The notes under the pieces are model-generated. The model had not been told where the DNA came from. It saw only the letters and a program-made list of their open reading frames with translations, and searched no databases. The translations under genes and the position numbers were made by a program. From Escherichia coli (GTDB lineage Bacteria > Pseudomonadota > Gammaproteobacteria > Enterobacterales > Enterobacteriaceae), in NCBI RefSeq assembly GCF_009931435.1, contig NZ_CP043414.1: 64,000 bases of DNA; one strand, 5' to 3'. Below are positions 5,665-55,985 of the stretch, one piece after another (positions within the stretch are counted from its first letter, which is position 1; each line of letters begins with the position of its first letter).

Positions 5665-5895
5665 TTCGCGTTTTACCAATTCAAATGTCTACGTCTTGAA
5701 TGACTGAATATTGATTGAACTTAATTACGAGTCTCCTCGCATCTTTTCAACAAGTTACTGCACACCGTTATTCTTCTTCCGAACGGCATTCCTGAGTCAA
5801 CTTTATCCCCCTGACGGCCCATATAAATCGCGCTATCGTGATTGTTATTGCTAAATGTGTGTGTGTCGTGTGTATAATCATGGAAGGGCAGGGAT

Positions 5896-6081
5896 GTGAA
5901 AAGTGCAGACGTGATCGCCATCCTGAAGCAGCATGGCTGGGAACATATTCGAACCCGTGGTAGTCATCATCAGTTCCGCCACCCTGTTCATCCGGGTCTG
6001 GTGACGGTTCCGCACCCTAAAAAAGATATTAAGCCCGGTACGCTGGCGCAAATTGGGCGTCAGGCTGGTTTAACATTTTAA
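5896..6081 (+). CDS. HicA-family mRNA interferase toxin (predicted)
   Basis: 61-aa ORF with GTG start; motif RTRGSHHQFRHP and C-terminal PHPKKDIKPGTLAQIGRQAGL resemble the HicA/YcfA family; 16 nt upstream of a HicB-like ORF; TATAAT at 5873-5878. Confidence 0.6.
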   Translation: MKSADVIAILKQHGWEHIRTRGSHHQFRHPVHPGLVTVPHPKKDIKPGTLAQIGRQAGLTF

Positions 6082-6097
6082 AATTTCAGGAGGCAAT

Positions 6098-6508
6098 ATG
6101 TTTTATCCCGCCTATATCCACAGTGATCCTGACGGCAGCGCCAGCGGTTTTTTCCCTGATGTTCCAGGCTGTTATTTTGCTGGTGATACGCTGGACAACG
6201 CTTTCCAGGATGCGCGAAGTGCACTGGTCGCGCACTTCGAAACCTTATGCGAGATGAATGAAGAGTTGCCGCTTCCAGGCTCTGTGGAAACACATCTGGT
6301 CCAGCGTGCGCAGGACTTTATTGGCGGGCAATGGTTGCTGGTGGATATCAATATGAATCAGTTCGAAGGTCGGGCTGAACGTATCAATATTACGATGCCG
6401 AAAAGATTACTGAACAAGATTGATACCTACGTGCGCAATAACCCAGACTACGCCAACAGAAGTGCGTTTCTGGCGGAAGCTGCCCGGCGTGTATTGCCGG
6501 GCGTTTAA
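6098..6508 (+). CDS. HicB-family antitoxin with C-terminal ribbon-helix-helix domain (predicted)
   Basis: 136-aa ORF; N-terminal HicB-like fold signature (YPAYIHSDPDGSASGFFPDVPGCYFAGDT...ELPLP); C-terminal RHH-like segment INITMPKRLLNKIDTYV...NRSAFLAEAARRVL; SD AGGAGG 6 nt upstream of ATG. Confidence 0.6.
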   Translation: MFYPAYIHSDPDGSASGFFPDVPGCYFAGDTLDNAFQDARSALVAHFETLCEMNEELPLPGSVETHLVQRAQDFIGGQWLLVDINMNQFEGRAERINITMPKRLLNKIDTYVRNNPDYANRSAFLAEAARRVLPGV

Positions 6509-6840
6509 TCTCGCGTTTCGATGGTGAGCGGGCGGACCAGGCTGTACAGCCACAGACCAAAACAAGCGATGGTGCCAATCACCACGGTGAGGAACACACT
6601 GACTGACAGGCCTGCAAGCAATCCCGCAGGCAGGGCCAGCAGGCCGTGGATCACGGTGTCGTTCCATCTCACCTGATCGTAGCCAAACATGCCTAAAACG
6701 CCGCAAACCAGACCGTAAATCACCATTGGTGTTCCGAGGCCAATCAGCAATAAACGGTAGATAATTGAAGGTTTAATACGCTTTATCTGTACTGTGGATG
6801 TTTTACTGGGGTTATTCATTAGTTTGGTCAATAGTTCCAT
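6505..6840 (-). CDS. Hypothetical small inner-membrane protein (two or three predicted TM helices)
   Basis: 111-aa product from ATG at 6840 inside a 127-aa ORF; hydrophobic stretches IIYRLLLIGLGTPMVIYGLVCGVLGMF and LLALPAGLLAGLSVSVFLTVVIGTIACFGLWLY; convergent with the hicB-like gene and overlapping its 3' end by 4 nt. Confidence 0.4.
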   Translation of the reverse strand: MELLTKLMNNPSKTSTVQIKRIKPSIIYRLLLIGLGTPMVIYGLVCGVLGMFGYDQVRWNDTVIHGLLALPAGLLAGLSVSVFLTVVIGTIACFGLWLYSLVRPLTIETRD

Positions 6841-10349: not shown

Positions 10350-10437
10350 TTCAGGCTTGATAAGACGCGTTAAGCGTCGCATCAGGCAATGTGCACCCTA
10401 CGTTGGATGCGGCGCGAGCGCCTTATCCAACCTACGG
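10350..10437. repeat. REP/BIME palindromic repeat cluster
   Basis: Tandem REP-like units (GATAAGACGCGTTAAGCGTCGCATCAGGC; GGATGCGGCGCGAGCGCCTTATCC) between yiaT and the GH127-like gene. Confidence 0.6.
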
Positions 10438-12402
10438 ATGGCAATGCTTTTCCTCATTCACCCAGATCCGCATTTCGCCTTCACCCCGGTTGGCCCAGCT
10501 AAACCACGGGATAAACGTCAGAGTTTGCGGCTGGCGTTTGGCTGGCGCACTATCGTAATGCCACAGCTGTTGCTGCTCTGGATTGCTCTGTTCATACCGG
10601 TAACCCGGTGCCTGGATTAAGATCTTATGGTGGAACAATCCATTACCTTCAAATGTCGTAAATAGCGCATCGGCGGGCAGCCACAGGTTATGCAGTGACT
10701 CGCCGTTGTCGGCCTGTTCCAGGCAATACACCAGCGGGCCGCGCTGAATCGCCACTTTTCCGGCGACGTGACGCACCAGCGGGTTACCGTAAACGCGACG
10801 TACCGGCATTGGCAAAGTCAGATTCAGCGTGTCGCCCTCCTGCCATTCGCGGGTAATGTGCAAATACCCTTTACGAATATCCTGCTCGACCTCTTCCCCA
10901 TTCAATGTAATCTGCGGCTGTGTGCACCAGTCCGGCAGACGTAAAGCCAGCGTATGACGCACCGGCTGGGGCGATTCAACCGCAATTGTCACCTGTTCCT
11001 GCCACGGATAGTTTCCGCTAACCCGCAGACGCAGCGTGCCATTTTCTACCGGCACTTCCATGCTGTTTCCTGCGTAGATGTTGATATACAACGCATCTTC
11101 ACGCGGCGTGTAGAGATAATGACCAATCGAGGTTAGCACACGGGCGATATTTGGCGGACAACAAGCGCAACCAAACCAACGCTGGCGGATCGGCTTAACG
11201 TGATCGTAGATATGGTTGAATTTCAGCGATTTTGGATGTACTTCCAGCGGATTCACATAGAAGAAATGTTTGCCATCCAGCGCCATGCCGCCGAGCACGG
11301 TGTTGTACAGTGCGCGCTCCATCACATCGGCATATTGACTGTCGCCTTCCATTTCCAGCATTCGCCGGGCGAACATCATCAGACCGATGGAAGCACAGCT
11401 TTCGGCGTATACCGTGTCATTCGGCAGATCGTAATCGCTGCTGAACGCTTCGCCGCTGCTTTGTGAGCCAATGCCGCCGGTAATATATAACTGACGCTGG
11501 GCCATATTGTTCCACAGCCGCAGGCAGTCCTGACGCTTGCTTTCATCGTGACTTAAACGCGCGAGATGCGCGACGCCGGTCATCAGGTAGACAAAACGTA
11601 CCGCGTGACCAATGGCGGTTTGCTGCTGTGCGATGGGCAAATGTGCCTGGCTGTAGGCTTTGTCTTTCACCATCCACGCCGGGCCGTAGGTGTGCCAGTG
11701 CGAGGTCTGCCCGCGCTTTTCATATTCCTGGTCGTAATAGTGCGGTTGCGCACCACGCTGTTCGACAAAATAGTGGGTCAGCGCCAGGTAGCGCGGCTCT
11801 TCGGTCACTTCATACAGGCGCATTAGTGCCAGTTCAATTTCCGGGTGACCAGGATAACCGTGTAACTTACTTTCACCTGGACCAAATACGCTGTCGATAT
11901 GATCGGCCAGACGGCAAACCACTTCCAGCAAGCGCCGCTTGCCCGTGGCCTGGAAGAAGGCGACTCCGGCTTCAATCAGATGACCGGCGCAGTAAAGTTC
12001 ATGACACTCCGCCAGATTGCTCCAGCGTTCTTCGGGCGCTTTTACCGTAAAGTAAGTATTGAGATAGCCATCTTCGCACTGGGCGGAAGCGACCAGTTCG
12101 ATTACCTCGTCAGCAGTTTTTTCCAGTTCGGCATCCGGCTTCTGGCACAGCGACCAGGCTACCGCTTCCAGCCATTTGGCGACGTCGCTGTCCTGAAACA
12201 CCATCCCGTAAAATTCACCGTCTTGCAGTCCTGCGGCAATGCGAAAGTTTTCAATCGCATGGCTGGGTTCCGCTTCTGGGATACGATCGTTCAAGGCATC
12301 CCACTGATAAGGAATCACCACGTCGCGGACCAGTTGTTGGTACTGACCGAGGAACGGATCGCTGACCGTCAGTTTATGCAGATCGACTTCCGAAATGTTC
12401 AT
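10432..12402 (-). CDS. Glycoside hydrolase family 127 (DUF1680, beta-L-arabinofuranosidase-like) protein, cytoplasmic
   Basis: 656-aa product from ATG at 12402, preceded by AAGGAG with 6-nt spacer; no signal peptide; E-x-C (AESCAS) and C-x-CC (FGCACCPPN) motifs consistent with the Zn/Cys active site described for GH127 HypBA1. Confidence 0.75.
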   Translation of the reverse strand: MNISEVDLHKLTVSDPFLGQYQQLVRDVVIPYQWDALNDRIPEAEPSHAIENFRIAAGLQDGEFYGMVFQDSDVAKWLEAVAWSLCQKPDAELEKTADEVIELVASAQCEDGYLNTYFTVKAPEERWSNLAECHELYCAGHLIEAGVAFFQATGKRRLLEVVCRLADHIDSVFGPGESKLHGYPGHPEIELALMRLYEVTEEPRYLALTHYFVEQRGAQPHYYDQEYEKRGQTSHWHTYGPAWMVKDKAYSQAHLPIAQQQTAIGHAVRFVYLMTGVAHLARLSHDESKRQDCLRLWNNMAQRQLYITGGIGSQSSGEAFSSDYDLPNDTVYAESCASIGLMMFARRMLEMEGDSQYADVMERALYNTVLGGMALDGKHFFYVNPLEVHPKSLKFNHIYDHVKPIRQRWFGCACCPPNIARVLTSIGHYLYTPREDALYINIYAGNSMEVPVENGTLRLRVSGNYPWQEQVTIAVESPQPVRHTLALRLPDWCTQPQITLNGEEVEQDIRKGYLHITREWQEGDTLNLTLPMPVRRVYGNPLVRHVAGKVAIQRGPLVYCLEQADNGESLHNLWLPADALFTTFEGNGLFHHKILIQAPGYRYEQSNPEQQQLWHYDSAPAKRQPQTLTFIPWFSWANRGEGEMRIWVNEEKHCHP

Positions 12403-12412
12403 CTTGTGCTCC

Positions 12413-13813
12413 TTAAGGCTGTACATGACGCTGACGCAGGTCGCTAGCAATGCGTGACATCATAGGGTTATTGAGTTTGCAAAAGCGGATCGCCATCGCC
12501 AGCAGCAGGTGGAACAGCGCAGGCAGCAATGTTTCCATCGCCGCGATCCCGCCAAGCGAACTGGCGGTCTGGTTTTCCACGCCTGGCTGGTAGGCGACAA
12601 AAATAAACAGCAGGCTGATGATCCCGGCGCTGGAGGCCCAGGCCAGCTTGATGAAAAACAGATTGAAGGCGAAGTTCATGCCGGAAGAACGTACGCGGGT
12701 TTTCCACTCGCCGTAGTCATCGGCAAAGGCCATCAATGAGAAGTGCAATGGCAATGTGAAGCCAAGAATCACGCCATTACCAAGGATCACCGCCAGCCAC
12801 AGCGTTTGATAAGCCGGGCCAGAAGGCAGGAACCACATCAACACCGCCAGCGCGGCGAGGAGCAGGTTGGTGTAGTAGTAAATTTTGACGGTATCGAAAC
12901 GTCGCGTTAACGGGCTGACAATCACCGAGCCGATAATGGAGGCGAAGGTGACCATAGTGAAGAACAGCGACGTGTAGCCCGTACTGCCTTGTAAGACGTA
13001 GGTAATGAAGTACATATACCCACCGCCGCGAATATTAAAGACGTTAATCAGCAGGAAAGACATGACCAGCATCAGCAGCAGTTGGTCGTTGTTTCGCAGC
13101 CCGGCAAGATGTTCGCGCAGGGTAAATTTCCCCATTGTGGAGAGTGGCACCCGTTCACGAACCCAGAAGAAACAGCACAGGAACATCACCACAGCGATGG
13201 CGCACAGCACGCCGACGCCCAGTTGATAGCCGCGCGCGGCATTACCCTGACCGAAGAGATCTACCATCCACGGCAGGCCAACCGAAACCAGAAATCCCGC
13301 TACGCCGCAGAGAACGAATCGCCAGGACTGGCAGGAGATCACTTCATTGTGGCGGGTGGTCATGGTGTTGATCAGCGCGCAGTACGGCACGTTGATGGCG
13401 GTATAACCGACTGAAAGGAGCAGGTAAGTGCCGAACGCCCAGGCGATTTTTACTCCCATGCTGGCATCTGGCACGGTGAACGTCAGGATGCCGATAATGC
13501 CGATGGGAATGGCAATCCACAACTGCCACGGACGAAAGCGCCCCCAGCGACTTTGCGTCCGGTCGGCAATGACGCCCATCACCGGGTCGGAGATGGCATC
13601 AAACACGCGCAGTGCAATAAACAGCGTGCCGACCAGCGCCGGAGTTAAGCCAAAAACGTCGGTGTAGAAAAAGGTGAGAAAGTTCATGATCAGGCAAGTT
13701 ATTACGGTGCCGCCTGCGTCACCCAGGCCGTAGCCTATTTTTTCCCGTACAGATAACGCATCGTCAATTTTACCTTTAGCGATATCAGCGGTAGTAATCG
13801 GTGTAGAGGTCAT
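12413..13813 (-). CDS. GPH-family (MFS superfamily) glycoside/cation symporter
   Basis: 466-aa ORF; about 12 hydrophobic helices; N-terminal region with conserved Asp (GYGLGDAGG...[18 protein letters not shown]) typical of MelB/YicJ-like transporters; stop lies 10 nt upstream of the GH127 start. Confidence 0.75.
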
Positions 13814-14038
13814 AGATATTCCTCGTGCATAGGGAGCAATTTTTAGTTTTATTGAAATGACATGATTAATTCTGCCGTGAACGGGAATATCAACAAGGCG
13901 AGAAAAGAGTAAAAAAAGGTGACGATTCCGACCTGAATTTAAAAGTGTGAATTGGATCAGGTGAAATTAATGTTTTTGATTAATAATCAAAAGGTAATGT
14001 GTTTAATCATTAATGAATAAGCGGGAAATTACATATCA

Positions 14039-14854
14039 ATGCTCGAATTATCCATGACGTTACCGATTAAAGTGCAAAATGGTGGATTATTTATTTCCCG
14101 TGGCGTAGGGAGGCATCCTGCAAGGCGGCTGGAGTCATGGGAAATTATCTTTGTCGAAAAAGGTCGATTAACGATTCAGGAAGAAGAGCAGATATTTCAG
14201 GTTGATGCGGGAGAGAGTTTATTGCTCTGGCCGAAACGTCAGCACGTTGGTGTTGAGGATTTCCCCGCTGACCTTAAATTTTACTGGCTACATTTTGAGG
14301 TTAAAGCGCCGGACAACGATCCGCGCTGGCTCACTCATCTTAGCGTGCCGCAGCACACCAAAGTCGCCGACCCTCAGGCGTTGAGTGCACTGTTTCGCCA
14401 GTTTTTAAGCGAGCAGGAAAAACATCAGCGTAGCCCTGCGCTGGAGTTTATTGTGTTGTTGATTTTACAGCAGCTTACCTTCGACGTACGTCTTGATGAA
14501 CAAGCCGATACTGCAGGCACCGCCCTTGCCTGGAAAGCACAAAAGCTGATCCGCACGCAATATCATCGCCCGCTTTCTACGGCAATTTTGGCCCGCGAGC
14601 TCTACTGTAATGCCGATTATCTTGGGCGCGTGTATCGTCGGGTATTTCGTTTGACGTTGACAGAAGCTATCCATCGCCAAAGAGTGCGCGAAGCCGAAAA
14701 GCTGTTAATTAGCGAAGCGCGATCGCTCACGGAAGTGGCGGCGTTGTGCGGGTTTAATGACGTTGGCTATTTCCGACAGATTTTTCGCAAACACACCGGT
14801 TTAACGCCAGCTGCGTGGAAGCGACGTTACAGTAAGGAACATATCAATTCGTAG
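14039..14854 (+). CDS. AraC/XylS-family transcriptional regulator
   Basis: 271-aa ORF; N-terminal cupin-like sugar-binding domain, C-terminal double HTH (LTEVAALCGFNDVGYFRQIFRKHTGLTPAAWKRRY); divergent from the transporter gene. Confidence 0.8.
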   Translation: MLELSMTLPIKVQNGGLFISRGVGRHPARRLESWEIIFVEKGRLTIQEEEQIFQVDAGESLLLWPKRQHVGVEDFPADLKFYWLHFEVKAPDNDPRWLTHLSVPQHTKVADPQALSALFRQFLSEQEKHQRSPALEFIVLLILQQLTFDVRLDEQADTAGTALAWKAQKLIRTQYHRPLSTAILARELYCNADYLGRVYRRVFRLTLTEAIHRQRVREAEKLLISEARSLTEVAALCGFNDVGYFRQIFRKHTGLTPAAWKRRYSKEHINS

Positions 14855-16435: not shown

Positions 16436-17090
16436 GCGCGCCTCCCCAGATAGCGTCGATTTGCGCATGGAAGTCGGCCGCCACCTGCGCCGGATTTGCT
16501 GCGCCTGCCAGCGCCCGCCCGGCAATAAACGCTTTCACGCGGATATCTTTAAACAGCGGCAGGTCAGCAGGCGTAATCCCGCCGGTAACGGAAAGCTCAA
16601 GGCCGATATCGGAAAGCGCCTTCATGCGTGCCAGATCGGCTTCGCCCCACTGTTGCCCGCTGGCCTGCGCGTCACGGCCACGATGATAAATGGCCTGCCG
16701 CACGCCAATACGATGCCAGTCGCGGGCGTCGTCCAGCGTCCAGTTACCAAAAAGCTCTATCTGGATTTCACCACCGCAGCGTTGCGCCATCGCGTGGCCT
16801 TTTTCCACCGTCGCGAGCGGTGCGGCGCAGATGATGGTCATCCAGTTAGCGCCTGCACCAAACGCCTGTTGCGCGAGCGTTTCACCCGCGTCGGCGACTT
16901 TCCAGTCAGCAACGATGATTTTGTCCGGGCACTGTTCGCGCAAGGCTTTCACCGCGCCAAGCCCTTCGTTTAAACAGAGAATGGTGCCCGCTTCGACGAT
17001 ATCGACGCTGTCTTTTAACAGCGCAACGTCGCGCTGTGCGGCTTCAAGTGATGAGTGGTCGAGGGCCAGTTGCAGAAGTGGTCTGCTCAT
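16428..17090 (-). CDS. sgbH: 3-keto-L-gulonate-6-phosphate decarboxylase
   Basis: 220-aa ORF; orotidine-5'-phosphate decarboxylase-like family; overlaps lyxK stop (ATGA-type junction). Confidence 0.9.
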
Positions 17091-40254: not shown

Positions 40255-41166
40255 ATGCAAAAGTTTGATACCAGGACCTTCCAGGGCTTGATCCTGACCT
40301 TACAGGATTACTGGGCTCGCCAGGGCTGCACCATTGTTCAACCATTGGACATGGAAGTCGGCGCGGGAACCTCTCACCCAATGACCTGTCTGCGCGCGCT
40401 GGGGCCAGAACCGATGGCGGCTGCTTATGTTCAGCCTTCTCGTCGCCCGACCGATGGTCGCTACGGCGAAAACCCCAACCGTTTACAGCACTACTATCAG
40501 TTCCAGGTGGTCATTAAGCCATCGCCGGACAATATTCAGGAGCTGTACCTTGGTTCTCTGAAAGAGCTGGGCATGGACCCGACTATCCACGATATCCGTT
40601 TCGTGGAAGATAACTGGGAAAACCCGACTTTGGGTGCCTGGGGGCTGGGCTGGGAAGTGTGGCTGAACGGCATGGAAGTGACGCAGTTCACTTACTTCCA
40701 GCAGGTTGGTGGTCTGGAGTGTAAACCGGTTACCGGCGAGATCACCTACGGTCTGGAACGTCTGGCCATGTACATTCAGGGCGTAGACAGCGTTTACGAC
40801 CTGGTCTGGAGCGACGGCCCGCTGGGTAAAACCACCTACGGCGACGTGTTCCATCAGAACGAAGTGGAGCAGTCCACTTACAACTTCGAATACGCGGATG
40901 TGGACTTCCTGTTCACCTGCTTCGAGCAATACGAGAAAGAAGCGCAGCAGCTGCTGGCGCTGGAAAATCCGCTGCCGCTGCCAGCCTACGAGCGTATTCT
41001 GAAAGCCGCCCACAGCTTCAACCTGCTGGATGCGCGTAAAGCCATCTCCGTCACTGAGCGTCAGCGCTATATTCTGCGCATTCGCACCCTGACCAAAGCA
41101 GTGGCAGAAGCATACTACGCTTCCCGTGAAGCCCTCGGCTTCCCGATGTGCAACAAAGATAAGTAA
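40255..41166 (+). CDS. glyQ: Glycine--tRNA ligase alpha subunit
   Basis: 303-aa ORF ([25 protein letters not shown]...). Confidence 0.95.
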
Positions 41167-41175
41167 GAGGCGGCT

Positions 41176-43245
41176 ATGTCTGAGAAAACTTTTCTGGTGG
41201 AAATCGGCACTGAAGAGCTGCCACCAAAAGCACTGCGCAGCCTGGCTGAGTCCTTTGCTGCGAACTTTACTGCGGAGCTGGATAACGCTGGCCTCGCACA
41301 CGGCACCGTTCAATGGTTTGCTGCTCCGCGTCGTCTGGCGCTGAAAGTAGCTAACCTGGCGGAAGCGCAACCGGATCGTGAAATCGAAAAACGTGGCCCG
41401 GCAATTGCTCAGGCGTTCGATGCTGAAGGCAAACCGAGCAAAGCGGCAGAAGGCTGGGCGCGTGGTTGCGGTATTACCGTTGACCAGGCTGAGCGTCTGA
41501 CTACCGATAAAGGCGAATGGCTGCTGTATCGCGCCCACGTGAAGGGCGAAAGCACTGAAGCACTGTTGCCGAATATGGTTGCGACTTCGCTGGCGAAACT
41601 GCCGATCCCGAAACTGATGCGTTGGGGTGAAAGCGACGTGCACTTCGTGCGTCCGGTGCACACCGTGACCCTGCTGCTGGGCGACAAAGTCATTCCGGCA
41701 ACCATTCTGGGCATTCAGTCCGATCGCGTGATTCGCGGCCACCGCTTTATGGGCGAGCCGGAATTCACTATCGACAATGCTGATCAGTATCCGGAAATTC
41801 TGCGTGAGCGCGGGAAAGTCATCGCCGATTACGAAGAACGTAAGGCGAAGATTAAAGCCGATGCCGAAGAAGCGGCGCGTAAGATTGGCGGTAACGCTGA
41901 CTTAAGCGAAAGCCTGTTGGAAGAAGTCGCTTCGCTGGTGGAATGGCCGGTTGTGCTGACCGCAAAATTCGAAGAGAAATTCCTCGCGGTGCCGTCTGAA
42001 GCGCTGGTTTACACCATGAAAGGTGACCAGAAATACTTCCCGGTGTATGCGAACGACGGCAAACTGCTGCCGAACTTTATCTTCGTTGCCAATATCGAAT
42101 CGAAAGATCCGCAGCAAATTATTTCCGGTAATGAAAAAGTCGTTCGCCCACGTCTGGCGGATGCCGAGTTCTTCTTCAACACCGACCGTAAAAAACGGCT
42201 GGAAGATAACCTGCCGCGCCTGCAAACCGTGTTGTTCCAGCAACAGCTGGGTACACTGCGCGACAAAACTGACCGCATCCAGGCGCTGGCTGGCTGGATT
42301 GCTGAACAGATTGGCGCTGACGTTAACCACGCAACCCGTGCGGGCCTGCTGTCCAAGTGCGACCTGATGACCAACATGGTCTTCGAGTTCACCGACACCC
42401 AGGGCGTTATGGGGATGCACTACGCGCGTCACGATGGCGAAGCGGAAGATGTTGCCGTGGCGCTGAACGAGCAGTATCAGCCGCGCTTTGCCGGTGATGA
42501 CCTGCCGTCTAACCCGGTAGCCTGTGCGCTGGCGATAGCTGACAAGATGGATACTCTGGCGGGTATCTTCGGTATCGGCCAGCATCCGAAAGGCGACAAA
42601 GACCCGTTTGCGTTGCGTCGTGCCGCACTTGGCGTGCTGCGTATTATCGTTGAGAAGAACCTCAATCTTGACCTGCAAACCCTGACCGAAGAAGCAGTGC
42701 GTCTGTATGGCGATAAGCTGACTAATGCCAACGTGGTTGATGATGTTATCGACTTTATGCTCGGTCGCTTCCGCGCCTGGTATCAGGACGAAGGTTACAC
42801 CGTTGACACCATCCAGGCGGTACTGGCGCGTCGTCCGACTCGTCCGGCTGATTTCGATGCCCGAATGAAAGCGGTATCGCACTTCCGTACCCTGGATGCA
42901 GCTGCAGCACTGGCGGCGGCGAACAAGCGTGTATCTAACATTCTGGCGAAATCTGACGAAGTGCTGAGCGACCGCGTGAATGCCTCTACTCTGAAAGAGC
43001 CGGAAGAAATTAAACTGGCGATGCAGGTTGTGGTGCTACGTGACAAGCTAGAGCCGTACTTTGCTGAAGGTCGTTACCAGGATGCGCTGGTCGAACTGGC
43101 TGAGCTGCGTGAACCGGTTGATGCCTTCTTCGATAAAGTGATGGTCATGGTTGATGACAAAGAATTGCGAATCAACCGTCTTACCATGCTGGAGAAACTG
43201 CGCGAATTATTCCTGCGAGTTGCGGATATTTCGCTGTTGCAGTAA
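41176..43245 (+). CDS. glyS: Glycine--tRNA ligase beta subunit
   Basis: 689-aa ORF, 9 nt downstream of glyQ. Confidence 0.95.
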
Positions 43246-43262
43246 TAACGTCGTTATTAAAA

Positions 43263-43288
43263 AGCCTGCCATCTGGCAGGCTTTTTTA
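43263..43288 (+). terminator. Rho-independent terminator of glyQS
   Basis: agcctgcc-atct-ggcaggct stem-loop followed by a T6 run. Confidence 0.75.
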
Positions 43289-43566
43289 TCGCTAAATAAT
43301 AGAGCAACCTTTAATAATCTTCTGATGAATAAAGATTGTCTCATATATTAATTTTATGAGATTTTTTTAGGATTATATCAAGGAGAAGAAACGAACTTAT
43401 TAAGCTAGAATAGCTGCGGGTGCTTGAGACTGTTTGTCTCAGGTATTCACCGAAAGGCAGACAGAGAAAAGCCCCACCTGACTATAAATCAAAGTGAGGC
43501 TACCCTATGCCTGAACACCATAAGGTTAGCCTCTTACTCGTTGGAAATCAACACAGGAGGCTGGGA

Positions 43567-43719
43567 ATGCCGCAGAAATATAGATTACTTTCTTTAATAG
43601 TGATTTGTTGCACGCTTTTATTTTTCACCTGGATGATAAGAGATTCACTGTGTGAATTGCATATTAAACAGGGGAGTTATGAGCTGGCGGCATTTTTAGC
43701 CTGCAATTTGAAAGAGTAA
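43567..43719 (+). CDS. hokA: Hok-family small membrane toxin (type I toxin-antitoxin)
   Basis: 50-aa ORF MPQKYRLLSLIVICCTLLFFTWMIRDSLCELHIKQGSYELAAFLACNLKE; strong SD AGGAGG; an in-frame upstream ATG at 43507 is treated as not the start. Confidence 0.85.
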   Translation: MPQKYRLLSLIVICCTLLFFTWMIRDSLCELHIKQGSYELAAFLACNLKE

Positions 43720-43907
43720 GAGTCTTCGGCGGGAAGTTATTCCCGCCTTTCTTACGGCGTTGCGCATTCTCATTGCACCCAAATTTATTCTTCACAAAAA
43801 TAATAATAGATTTTATTACGCGAACGATTATTTATTTCCTGAATAAACAAATAAAAAAATCCCCGCCATTTGGCAGGGATCTTAGATTCTGTGCTTTTAA
43901 GCAGAGA

Positions 43908-44120
43908 TTACAGGCTGGTTACGTTACCAGCTGCCGGGCCTTTAGCGCCGCTTTCGATGGTGAAGGACACTTTCTGACCTTCGTCCAGAGATTTGTAACC
44001 ATCGTTCTGGATAGCAGAGAAGTGTACGAACACGTCTTTAGAGCCATCGTCAGGAGTGATGAAGCCGAAGCCTTTGTCAGCGTTGAACCATTTTACGATA
44101 CCAGTCATTTTACCGGACAT
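43908..44120 (-). CDS. cspA: Major cold shock protein
   Basis: 70-aa [24 protein letters not shown]... with RNP1/RNP2 motifs. Confidence 0.97.
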
Positions 44121-44279
44121 AGTGTATTACCTTTAATAATTTAAATGTGCCTTTCGGCGATATGGCGTGCTTTACAGATTTTGAAGCGTTAAAGGAAATG
44201 CACTACGAGGGGTATCAACGATAACTCTTGAAGGGACTTGCCTTACTACACTGCTTTAATGGTCTGTACGTCAAACCGT
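44121..44279 (-). promoter_or_regulatory. cspA long 5' untranslated leader (cold-box / thermosensing region) with promoter immediately upstream
   Basis: About 160-nt leader upstream of the cspA ATG; extent assigned from established knowledge of cspA, not derived from the sequence alone. Confidence 0.6.
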
Positions 44280-44400
44280 TGATGTGCATTAAGCCACGCA
44301 TTGGCGGGTGATGCAACAATTATTTTTCATATTTATGATTAATCGGTTGGAAAACGGTCCTGTCATCAGGACCGTAAACAGAAATAAAGTGGATAAAAGT

Positions 44401-55603: not shown

Positions 55604-55889
55604 GAGGATGAGAACCTCCGGGGGCGGGGAGGTTCGACTCGAGCGAAGCGAGAGAACGTTGCGCCAGCAACGGCCCGCAGGGCGAGCCACGAAGTGGCGA
55701 GTAATCCTCTATCACCGACCAATTTAGAAAAACCAGCCTACGGGCTGGTTTTTTGCTTTCTGCGGCCTGAAGAGGATGAGAACTTCCGGGGGCAGGGAGG
55801 TTCGACTCCAGCAAAGCGAGAGAACGCTGCGTCAGCAACGGCCCGCAGGGCGAGCCACGCAGTGGCGAGTAATCCTCTGGCACCGACCA
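55604..55889 (+). repeat. Two tandem 118-nt repeat units (168-nt period), each ending with a copy of the tRNA-Pro 3' end
   Basis: Units 55604-55721 and 55772-55889 are about 92% identical by eye; each ends AGTAATCCTCT(A/G)(T/G)CACCGACCA; second terminator-like hairpin at 55733-55754 between units. Confidence 0.7.
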
Positions 55890-55898
55890 AATCTGAAC

Positions 55899-55985
55899 GT
55901 AGGCCTGATAAGACGCGTTAGCGCCGCATCAGGCAACGGCACCGCACTTATTGTCGGATGCGGCGTGAACGCCTTATCTGACCGA
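55899..55985. repeat. REP/BIME element
   Basis: AGGCCTGATAAGACGCGTTAGCGCCGCATCAGGC ... GGATGCGGCGTGAACGCCTTATC. Confidence 0.6.

Follow-up and report, generated by a model that had tools for sequence, protein, structure and literature searches.

An uninterrupted hokA/mokA/sokA locus between glyS and cspA in Escherichia coli and the shared position of IS150 insertions in hok/sok loci

In the hok/sok system of plasmid R1, the toxin mRNA is stable and its 3′ end is slowly trimmed, with kinetics that are well established and are taken over here for a related chromosomal locus. The R1 system mediates post-segregational killing, which is reportedly not exerted by a chromosomal hokA free of insertion sequences (ISs). 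In E. coli K-12, the hok loci have been inactivated through IS insertion, point mutation, or rearrangement (PMC2654758, PMC7232551, PMC11551753), and the sokA gene of MG1655 is disrupted by IS150 (PMC11551753). IS-free hokA loci were already described by Pedersen and Gerdes in 1999, as far as that work is relayed by later papers (PMC2654758, PMC7232551, PMC11551753), and a later report lists IS-free hokA to hokE in strain NRG857c. For the IS-free hokA of E. coli C, neither post-segregational killing nor activation by rifampicin was found, according to a secondhand account of the 1999 study (bioRxiv 10.1101/2025.08.07.668861). The HokA coding sequence of K-12 is toxic when overexpressed, and HokA, unlike HokB, obtains its cysteines without RNA editing (bioRxiv 10.1101/2025.08.07.668861).

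We analyzed the region between glyS and cspA in a 64,000-nucleotide stretch of an E. coli chromosome (NZ_CP043414.1; here called the window, with position 1 as its first letter). It is very probable that this region carries an uninterrupted, ancestral-type allele of the hokA/mokA/sokA type I toxin-antitoxin system with an R1-like mechanism. This confidence applies to the identity and architecture of the locus; its physiological activity is rated much less likely. The toxin gene and its surroundings are as follows.

40255-41166: glyQ, from the list of open reading frames (ORFs).
41176-43245: glyS, with its coding sequence ending at 43245.
43259-43287, plus strand: glyQS intrinsic terminator, AAAAAGCCTGCC-ATCT-GGCAGGCTTTTTT, a hairpin and T-run read from the sequence; it bounds the intergenic region of hokA on the upstream side.
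43567-43719, plus strand: hokA toxin gene, 50 amino acids (aa), with the Shine-Dalgarno (SD) sequence AGGAGG at 43555-43560.
43696-43767, minus strand: ysaE-like ORF of 23 aa, running antisense across the hokA 3′ end; a neighbor outside the toxin-antitoxin mechanism.
43908-44120, minus strand: cspA coding sequence, within an Rfam cspA thermoregulator match at 43853-44280 (491 bits).

The preliminary description of this locus, made from the sequence alone, had proposed a Hok-family ORF of 50 aa behind a strong AGGAGG SD sequence. This was borne out: the SD sequence ends 6 nt upstream of the ATG at 43567, and the product (MPQKYRLLSLIVICCTLLFFTWMIRDSLCELHIKQGSYELAAFLACNLKE) matched Pfam PF01848 (HOK_GEF) at 79.3 bits (cut-off, 22), with residues 5 to 46 spanning the whole model, and the NCBIfam HokA equivalog NF007290 at 126.5 bits (cut-off, 89). 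The generic Hok subfamily model NF007279 scored 53 bits, below its cut-off of 73. Together with the Rfam match described below, these scores rule out a chance match. The gene order glyQ-glyS-hokA-cspA-yiaG is that of MG1655 and 5,425 other genomes, and both the equivalog model and synteny identify the gene as an orthologue of hokA; in an identical segment of E. coli R32_14_1F it is annotated as WP_001135727.1.

The predicted peptide has the properties of Hok/Gef toxins, namely, a length of about 50 aa, an N-terminal hydrophobic helix, and conserved cysteines, with both of the cysteines needed for the disulfide (C29 and C46) encoded. It shares 47/50 residues with K-12 HokA, from which it differs by F15C, E36G, and K47N, and it retains C14, T16, L28, C29, E30, E39, and C46. 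On alignment, none of the three substitutions falls on a position described as conserved in Hok, and even alanine replacements at such conserved residues did not abolish Hok toxicity.

An AT-rich spacer separates the glyQS terminator from the hokA ORF. The distance of about 320 bp originally given between hokA and this terminator is correct for the glyS stop codon (322 nt) but not for the terminator itself, which lies 279 nt from the hokA start. Positions 43339-43368 of the plus strand, in the interval from the glyS terminator to the hokA promoter, hold a perfect AT-rich hairpin (TCTCATA-N9-TATGAGA) with a T7 run behind it (predicted fold, −9.9 kcal/mol; z = −2.7), and this hairpin could be a second, weak terminator that shields hokA from glyQS read-through. 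Sub-threshold Rfam matches near the glyS terminator (STnc370 and various leaders) were weak and were read as generic terminator look-alikes. On the other side of hokA, the ysaE-like ORF is an annotated coding sequence in R32_14_1F and corresponds to ysaE in MG1655. Its product (MRNAVRKAGITSRRRLLLFQIAG) is a homologue of YsaE, a small protein of K-12 with which it shows 3 differences, and is labelled a hypothetical protein in most genomes. In E. coli Survcare321, which encodes the same HokA protein as the window, an extra segment of ∼390 bp annotated with a yidD-like coding sequence lies between hokA and cspA (652-1150 of that sequence, corresponding to approximately window position 43800).

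The remaining components of a hok/sok system were located around and upstream of hokA, on both strands.

43406-43411, plus strand: predicted −10 element of the hokA promoter, TAGAAT, aligning with TATAAT of hokC and TAGGAT of hokB.
43418-43780, plus strand: predicted full-length hokA mRNA of ∼363 nt, beginning with tac and ending with fbi.
43418-43429, plus strand: tac element, the mRNA 5′ end (GGGUGCUUGAGA), from the predicted fold.
43418-43569, plus strand: hok mRNA leader, Rfam RF01794 (“sok” family), covering model positions 1-157 of 157.
43507-43719, plus strand: mokA frame, 70 aa, in frame with hokA, with the SD sequence GAGG at 43496-43499.
43728-43747, plus strand: GC-rich 3′ stem-loop GGCGGGAA-GUUA-UUCCCGCC followed by UUUCUU, a terminator-like site present in both predicted folds.
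43768-43780, plus strand: fbi element (UCUCAUUGCACCC), complementary to tac.
43461-43516, minus strand: predicted antisense RNA sokA of 56 nt, complementary to the SD sequence and start region of mokA.
43523-43551, minus strand: predicted sokA promoter, with a −35 element TTGATT (43551-43546), a 17-nt spacer, and a −10 element TAACCT (43528-43523).

The Rfam family RF01794 models the sense-strand leader from +1 to the hok ATG, and its match in the window is unbroken and full length (124 bits; gathering score, 59; E = 1.6e-29). The 5′ end of the hokA mRNA was placed from the start of this model and from an alignment of the paralogues, and its 3′ limit was placed from the fbi pairing. The mRNA is thus predicted to start at G43418 with GGGUGCUUGAG, which is the same in hokA, hokB, and hokC, and in the alignment with MG1655 hokC and hokB the −10 element precedes the conserved GGGTGC start by 6 nt. 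A good −35 element is lacking, which is consistent with a weak promoter. Downstream, the GAGG of mokA sits 7 nt upstream of its start codon, and the in-frame layout of mokA and hokA matches that of the curated mokC/hokC pair of MG1655. The locus therefore has an overlapping mok frame with its own SD sequence, a layout from which translational coupling of the two frames is predicted.

The minimum free energy fold of 43418-43785 (−138.9 kcal/mol; z = −8.6 against shuffled sequences) contains a predicted long-range pairing of the 5′ and 3′ ends, in which tac and fbi form 11 bp (43418-43423 with 43775-43780 and 43425-43429 with 43768-43772). When the last 33 nt (43753-43785) were removed, the 5′ end was predicted to pair instead with 43469-43475, which corresponds to helix 1 of RF01794. 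The mean unpaired probability predicted for the mokA SD and start region (43493-43516) was 0.41 in the full-length RNA and 0.46 in the shortened RNA, so that the predicted thermodynamics lend no separate support to the activation step. The stem-loop at 43728-43747 is assumed, by analogy with the R1 hok mRNA, to protect the 3′ end of the active mRNA once it has been processed.

On the minus strand, the predicted SokA RNA ends in a terminator hairpin with a UUUUCUC tail (fold, −21.3 kcal/mol; z = −4.2). Its 3′ end at 43461 is given by the curated 35-nt sokA remnant of MG1655, which is exactly window 43461-43495, and its 5′ end was placed at 43516 by homology, the curated start of sokC being 8 nt into mokC and that of sokB 10 nt into mokB. 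The spacer of the predicted promoter holds the family-conserved GTAAGAGGCT. By these sequence features the RNA resembles other cis-antisense Sok RNAs, which are ∼55 to 65 nt long, cover the mok start, and have their own promoter and terminator. A generic scan for consensus sigma-70 promoters and terminators flagged none of the hokA and sokA promoters or the sokA and glyS terminators, and for this reason all four were placed by homology with curated K-12 features. The antisense promoter and terminator that the preliminary description had suggested looking for on the minus strand could thereby be located (TTGATT-17-TAACCT and the hairpin with its U-tail), again by homology, the consensus scan having been blank there.

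If the locus operates like that of R1, the weak promoter with its −10 element at 43406 would give rise to a stable hokA mRNA of ∼363 nt, in which the lock between tac and fbi would prevent both translation and binding of the antisense RNA. Slow shortening of the 3′ end as far as the 43728-43747 hairpin would remove fbi, and the 5′ end is modeled to re-pair with 43469-43475. In the refolded mRNA, mokA would be translated and, by analogy, hokA translation would be coupled to it. In an alternative branch, the short-lived 56-nt SokA (43516 to 43461, minus strand) would bind the mokA start, and the duplex would be destroyed. A drop in SokA would then allow the membrane-damaging HokA peptide of 50 aa to be made.

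The window locus thus shares with R1 hok/sok a Hok/Gef toxin, an overlapping mok frame, and a predicted cis-antisense Sok RNA over the mok start, as well as the conserved AGCCUCUUAC box, the 3′ hairpin, the tac-fbi pairing, and a leader that fits the covariance model. It differs in being chromosomal and in encoding a HokA only distantly similar to the plasmid toxin, as reflected by the score of 53 bits against the NF007279 cut-off of 73.

In K-12 MG1655, the curated order is cspA, ysaE, hokA (b4455), the mokA pseudogene (b4647), IS150, the sokA pseudogene (b4614), and glyS. The 1,443-bp IS150 (insJ/insK; 3720633-3722075) separates the 35-nt sokA remnant, on its glyS side, from the mokA pseudogene on its other side. 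In window coordinates, the K-12 element inserted in sokA after position 43495, in the orientation opposite to hokA. A BLAST comparison of the window with the K-12 derivative RP437 showed that the left flank matches up to 43495 and the right flank from 43535 onward. Two further features lie at this junction.

43496-43534, no strand: 39 bp absent from K-12 beside its IS150, containing the mokA SD sequence and ATG and, by homology placement, the 5′ end and −10 element of sokA.
43492-43494, no strand: AAG, an IS150 target site that is empty here, 1 nt ahead of the TGAGG of the mokA SD sequence and inside sokA.

Although the flanking genes are the same and the window flanks are 95.7% (left) and 97.4% (right) identical to those of K-12, the K-12 allele has therefore lost the mokA start together with the predicted promoter and 5′ end of sokA, and 1.4 kb now separate mokA/hokA from the hokA promoter and the leader's first 78 nt. 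Because IS150 splits the leader, the RF01794 score is lower in K-12 (70.1 bits versus 124 bits in the window). The preliminary description had placed insJK next to glyS in K-12, and IS150 indeed lies between glyS and hokA in MG1655 but is not merely beside glyS, as it sits within sokA. The alignment of the two regions that was proposed there as a check shows that the arrangements differ, the window having neither the IS150 nor the 39-bp loss.

A second disrupted form, here called ST131-type, has the same locus and flanks (96.5% identity to the window). Its IS150 lies in the hokA orientation, with a duplication of AAG at window 43492-43494 and no deletion. The RF01794 model matched this locus at 89.3 bits, with a separate match of 43.8 bits. 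The ST131-type insertion is independent of the K-12 event. The window allele belongs to neither form, with 43496-43534 present and the leader unbroken. No IS150 terminal repeats were found in the window, even with 5 mismatches allowed. The whole 64-kb window is also colinear with E. coli R32_14_1F (NZ_CP074749.1, 195382-259381; 98.4% and 97.7% identity), and none of the 60-odd features annotated in that colinear stretch is a transposase. The original statement that the window is free of ISs was therefore correct. The hokA segment of R32_14_1F is 100% identical to that of the window, but the 64 kb as a whole are only 98.4% and 97.7% identical, which argues against the two being one strain.

To place the window allele within the species, the segment 43150-43950 was searched against 5,426 complete E. 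coli genomes. It matched in 5,425 of them, on the chromosome every time, and glyS-hokA-cspA was uninterrupted (at least 80% of the query in one piece) in 2,830/5,426 (52%). The K-12-type junction was detected in 1,662 genomes by a 45+45-nt query covered to at least 80%. Most of the other genomes break at window position 43490, as expected for the ST131-type insertion at 43492-43494. The corresponding junction query returned 1,161 genomes, which is an upper bound because the query also catches homologous plasmid junctions; by subtraction, ∼930 genomes are left for the ST131-type and other forms. Only 90 of the 5,425 matching records were at least 99% identical to the window segment. The window therefore carries a minority allele but the majority arrangement, and this arrangement is not special, IS-free hokA being the majority state and already present in the literature.

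Relative to other IS-free loci, such as those of E. coli C and NRG857c, the window has the same glyS-hokA-cspA position and gene set, with 96 to 100% identity to the 2,830 genomes. There is no difference of kind; the window has C15, G36, and N47 and an AGGAGG rather than AGGGGG SD sequence. In an alignment of the window with 8 other IS-free alleles (mean column identity, 97%), its tac, fbi, leader, mokA start, sokA region, and both SD sequences agree with the nine-allele consensus, and fbi is identical in 8/9, including the window. No frameshifts or stops were found in the nine alleles. Since these are 97% identical and tac and fbi are almost invariant, covariation within E. coli is uninformative. 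Two polymorphisms were observed. The hokA SD sequence (43555-43560; alignment column 168) is AGGAGG in the window and in K-12 and AGGGGG in most of the sampled IS-free alleles, and the first mokA codons, the predicted SokA target (43503-43516; columns 111-124), occur as two haplotypes, GGCTACCCTATGCCTGAAC and GGCCCCTCTATGCATAGAC.

The preliminary description had suggested a functional hok/sok-type system, which holds insofar as all hok, mok, and sok sequence elements are intact but finds no support in E. coli C, where the IS-free locus reportedly gave no post-segregational killing. “Functional” can accordingly mean structurally intact and no more. Counting against an R1-like mechanism in the window are the failure of both predicted promoters in the generic scan, the small predicted change in mokA-start accessibility (only 0.41 to 0.46), the three residues by which HokA differs from the K-12 peptide that was tested, and the reported lack of post-segregational killing and rifampicin activation in E. 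coli C. It is a serious possibility, if somewhat the less probable one, that the locus is inert in spite of its intact sequence. It would then be what is left of a plasmid-type addiction module in decay, transcribed but never killing and with no selected role, and the absence of the IS would have no consequence. Such a state is compatible with the identity and architecture described above. It would fit the reports that chromosomal hokA (of E. coli C), hokB, and hokC produced neither killing nor rifampicin activation (bioRxiv 10.1101/2025.08.07.668861), as well as the tolerance of hokA disruption by IS150 in nearly half of the genomes and the recurrence of IS150 insertions by hok loci in evolution experiments, where they were read as loss of a redundant function (PMC5419217). 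Against it stand the ∼97% conservation of the ORF and regulatory elements across IS-free alleles, the nine examined containing neither frameshifts nor stops, and the toxicity of the HokA coding sequence when expressed; the parallel insertions would also be little explained by inertness, unless they reflect purely a target hot spot.

Inactivation of the window allele by point mutations in place of an IS, through the HokA substitutions F15C, E36G, and K47N or through altered fold-back elements, is highly improbable. The allele is in the minority (90/5,425 records at ≥99% identity), and its HokA has three amino acid differences from K-12 HokA. The substitutions, however, spare conserved positions, at which alanine replacements left Hok toxic, and the NCBIfam equivalog score is well above its cut-off. 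Mutations of the fold-back and translational-activation elements, which the preliminary description had named as grounds for rejecting its reading, were looked for and none were seen: tac, fbi, the leader, the mokA SD sequence and ATG, and the sokA region match the IS-free consensus, and the hokA SD sequence is the stronger variant, AGGAGG.

Equally improbable is a secondary origin of the IS-free state, in which a former IS150 would have been precisely excised or lost when the locus recombined with an IS-free copy. Reversion of sokE::IS150 to sokE+ has been obtained in the laboratory (PMC11551753), but the window has a single AAG with no scar, retains the 39 bp missing in K-12, and shares the IS-free form with the majority of genomes across diverse alleles. 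The simplest reading of these sequences is that the empty site is ancestral.

The uninterrupted hokA of the window is thus a common, already known allele of a well-described system. Because the contrast between IS-free hokA and the IS150-broken K-12 copy was described in 1999, the present finding correctly rediscovers a known polymorphism, and IS-free hokA loci are already apparent from current genome annotation pipelines. Its practical value lies in a clean reference anatomy of an intact hokA/mokA/sokA locus, with coordinates for each element, and in the reminder that K-12 is unrepresentative for chromosomal type I toxin-antitoxin loci.

More useful as a lead is the presence of IS150-family elements at the same few nucleotides across hok/sok paralogues and on many plasmids. 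The ST131-type insertion point is ATCAAAG/TGAGG (the slash marks the junction). On an IncF plasmid, IS150 adjoins an R1-like mok at AACCAC/CACGAGG. An IS150 insertion that arose in experimental evolution lies in front of mokC at REL606 position 16,972 (PMC5419217), which falls at ATCAAC[C]CGAGG. These three insertions, in ST131, the IncF plasmid, and REL606 hokC, are all located 1 to 3 nt from the mok SD sequence and within the Sok terminator hairpin. The K-12-type insertion in hokA independently occupies this recurrent point as well, in the opposite orientation and with the 39-bp loss. The positions compared with window 43492-43494 were 1561/3001 in the ST131 locus (L002), 1556/3001 in K-12 RP437 (L001), 2547 in the IncF plasmid (L009), and 273 in a further sequence (L018). 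Three published REL606 IS150 coordinates were mapped in total, and only that of hokC (16,972, 16,989) fits the named gene; the extracted mokB and hokE coordinates fall on chaB and cusA, probably as misread table rows, and were dropped.

The plasmid junction (45+45-nt query, at least 80% coverage) was found in 1,692 of 72,556 PLSDB plasmids. The matches came from Escherichia, Klebsiella, Salmonella, Enterobacter, and Citrobacter; many were only 80 to 90% identical, and some were annotated as the related ISKpn8. Recurrent IS150 insertions in sok genes have been reported previously (PMC11551753, PMC5419217), with sokE::IS150 present in more than 400 natural isolates (PMC11551753), and the new element would be the exact shared insertion position and its extent in plasmids. 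Our literature search returned no paper directly on hokA with IS150 or hokB with IS150.

The recurrence of IS150 at hok/sok loci may result from a target-site preference, from repeated selection, or from the inheritance of a few old insertions. We tentatively suggest, as the less probable case, that IS150-family elements recognize the AAG site specifically, so that targeting of hok/sok would be directed by structure or sequence and would not reflect only selection against the toxin. If this were so, the split between intact and broken hokA, the hokC insertion, and the ∼1,700 enterobacterial plasmid junctions would reflect directed insertion. Another possibility is that selection maintains intact hokA in the remaining half of the species. 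The shared site offers a means of testing target-site choice against selection.

Elsewhere in the window, colinearity with R32_14_1F indicates a hicA/hicB type II toxin-antitoxin pair with a hypothetical gene between aldB and yiaW (5880-6803) and a trio encoding a glycoside hydrolase of family 127, a major facilitator superfamily (MFS) transporter, and an AraC regulator between sgb/araD-like genes and yiaT (10416-14838); K-12 presumably lacks the pair and the trio at those positions. The sole notable length difference from R32_14_1F is at 55854-55935, where the window has ∼80 nt versus 21 nt, adjoining a tRNA-Pro gene and RtT repeats upstream of dppA.
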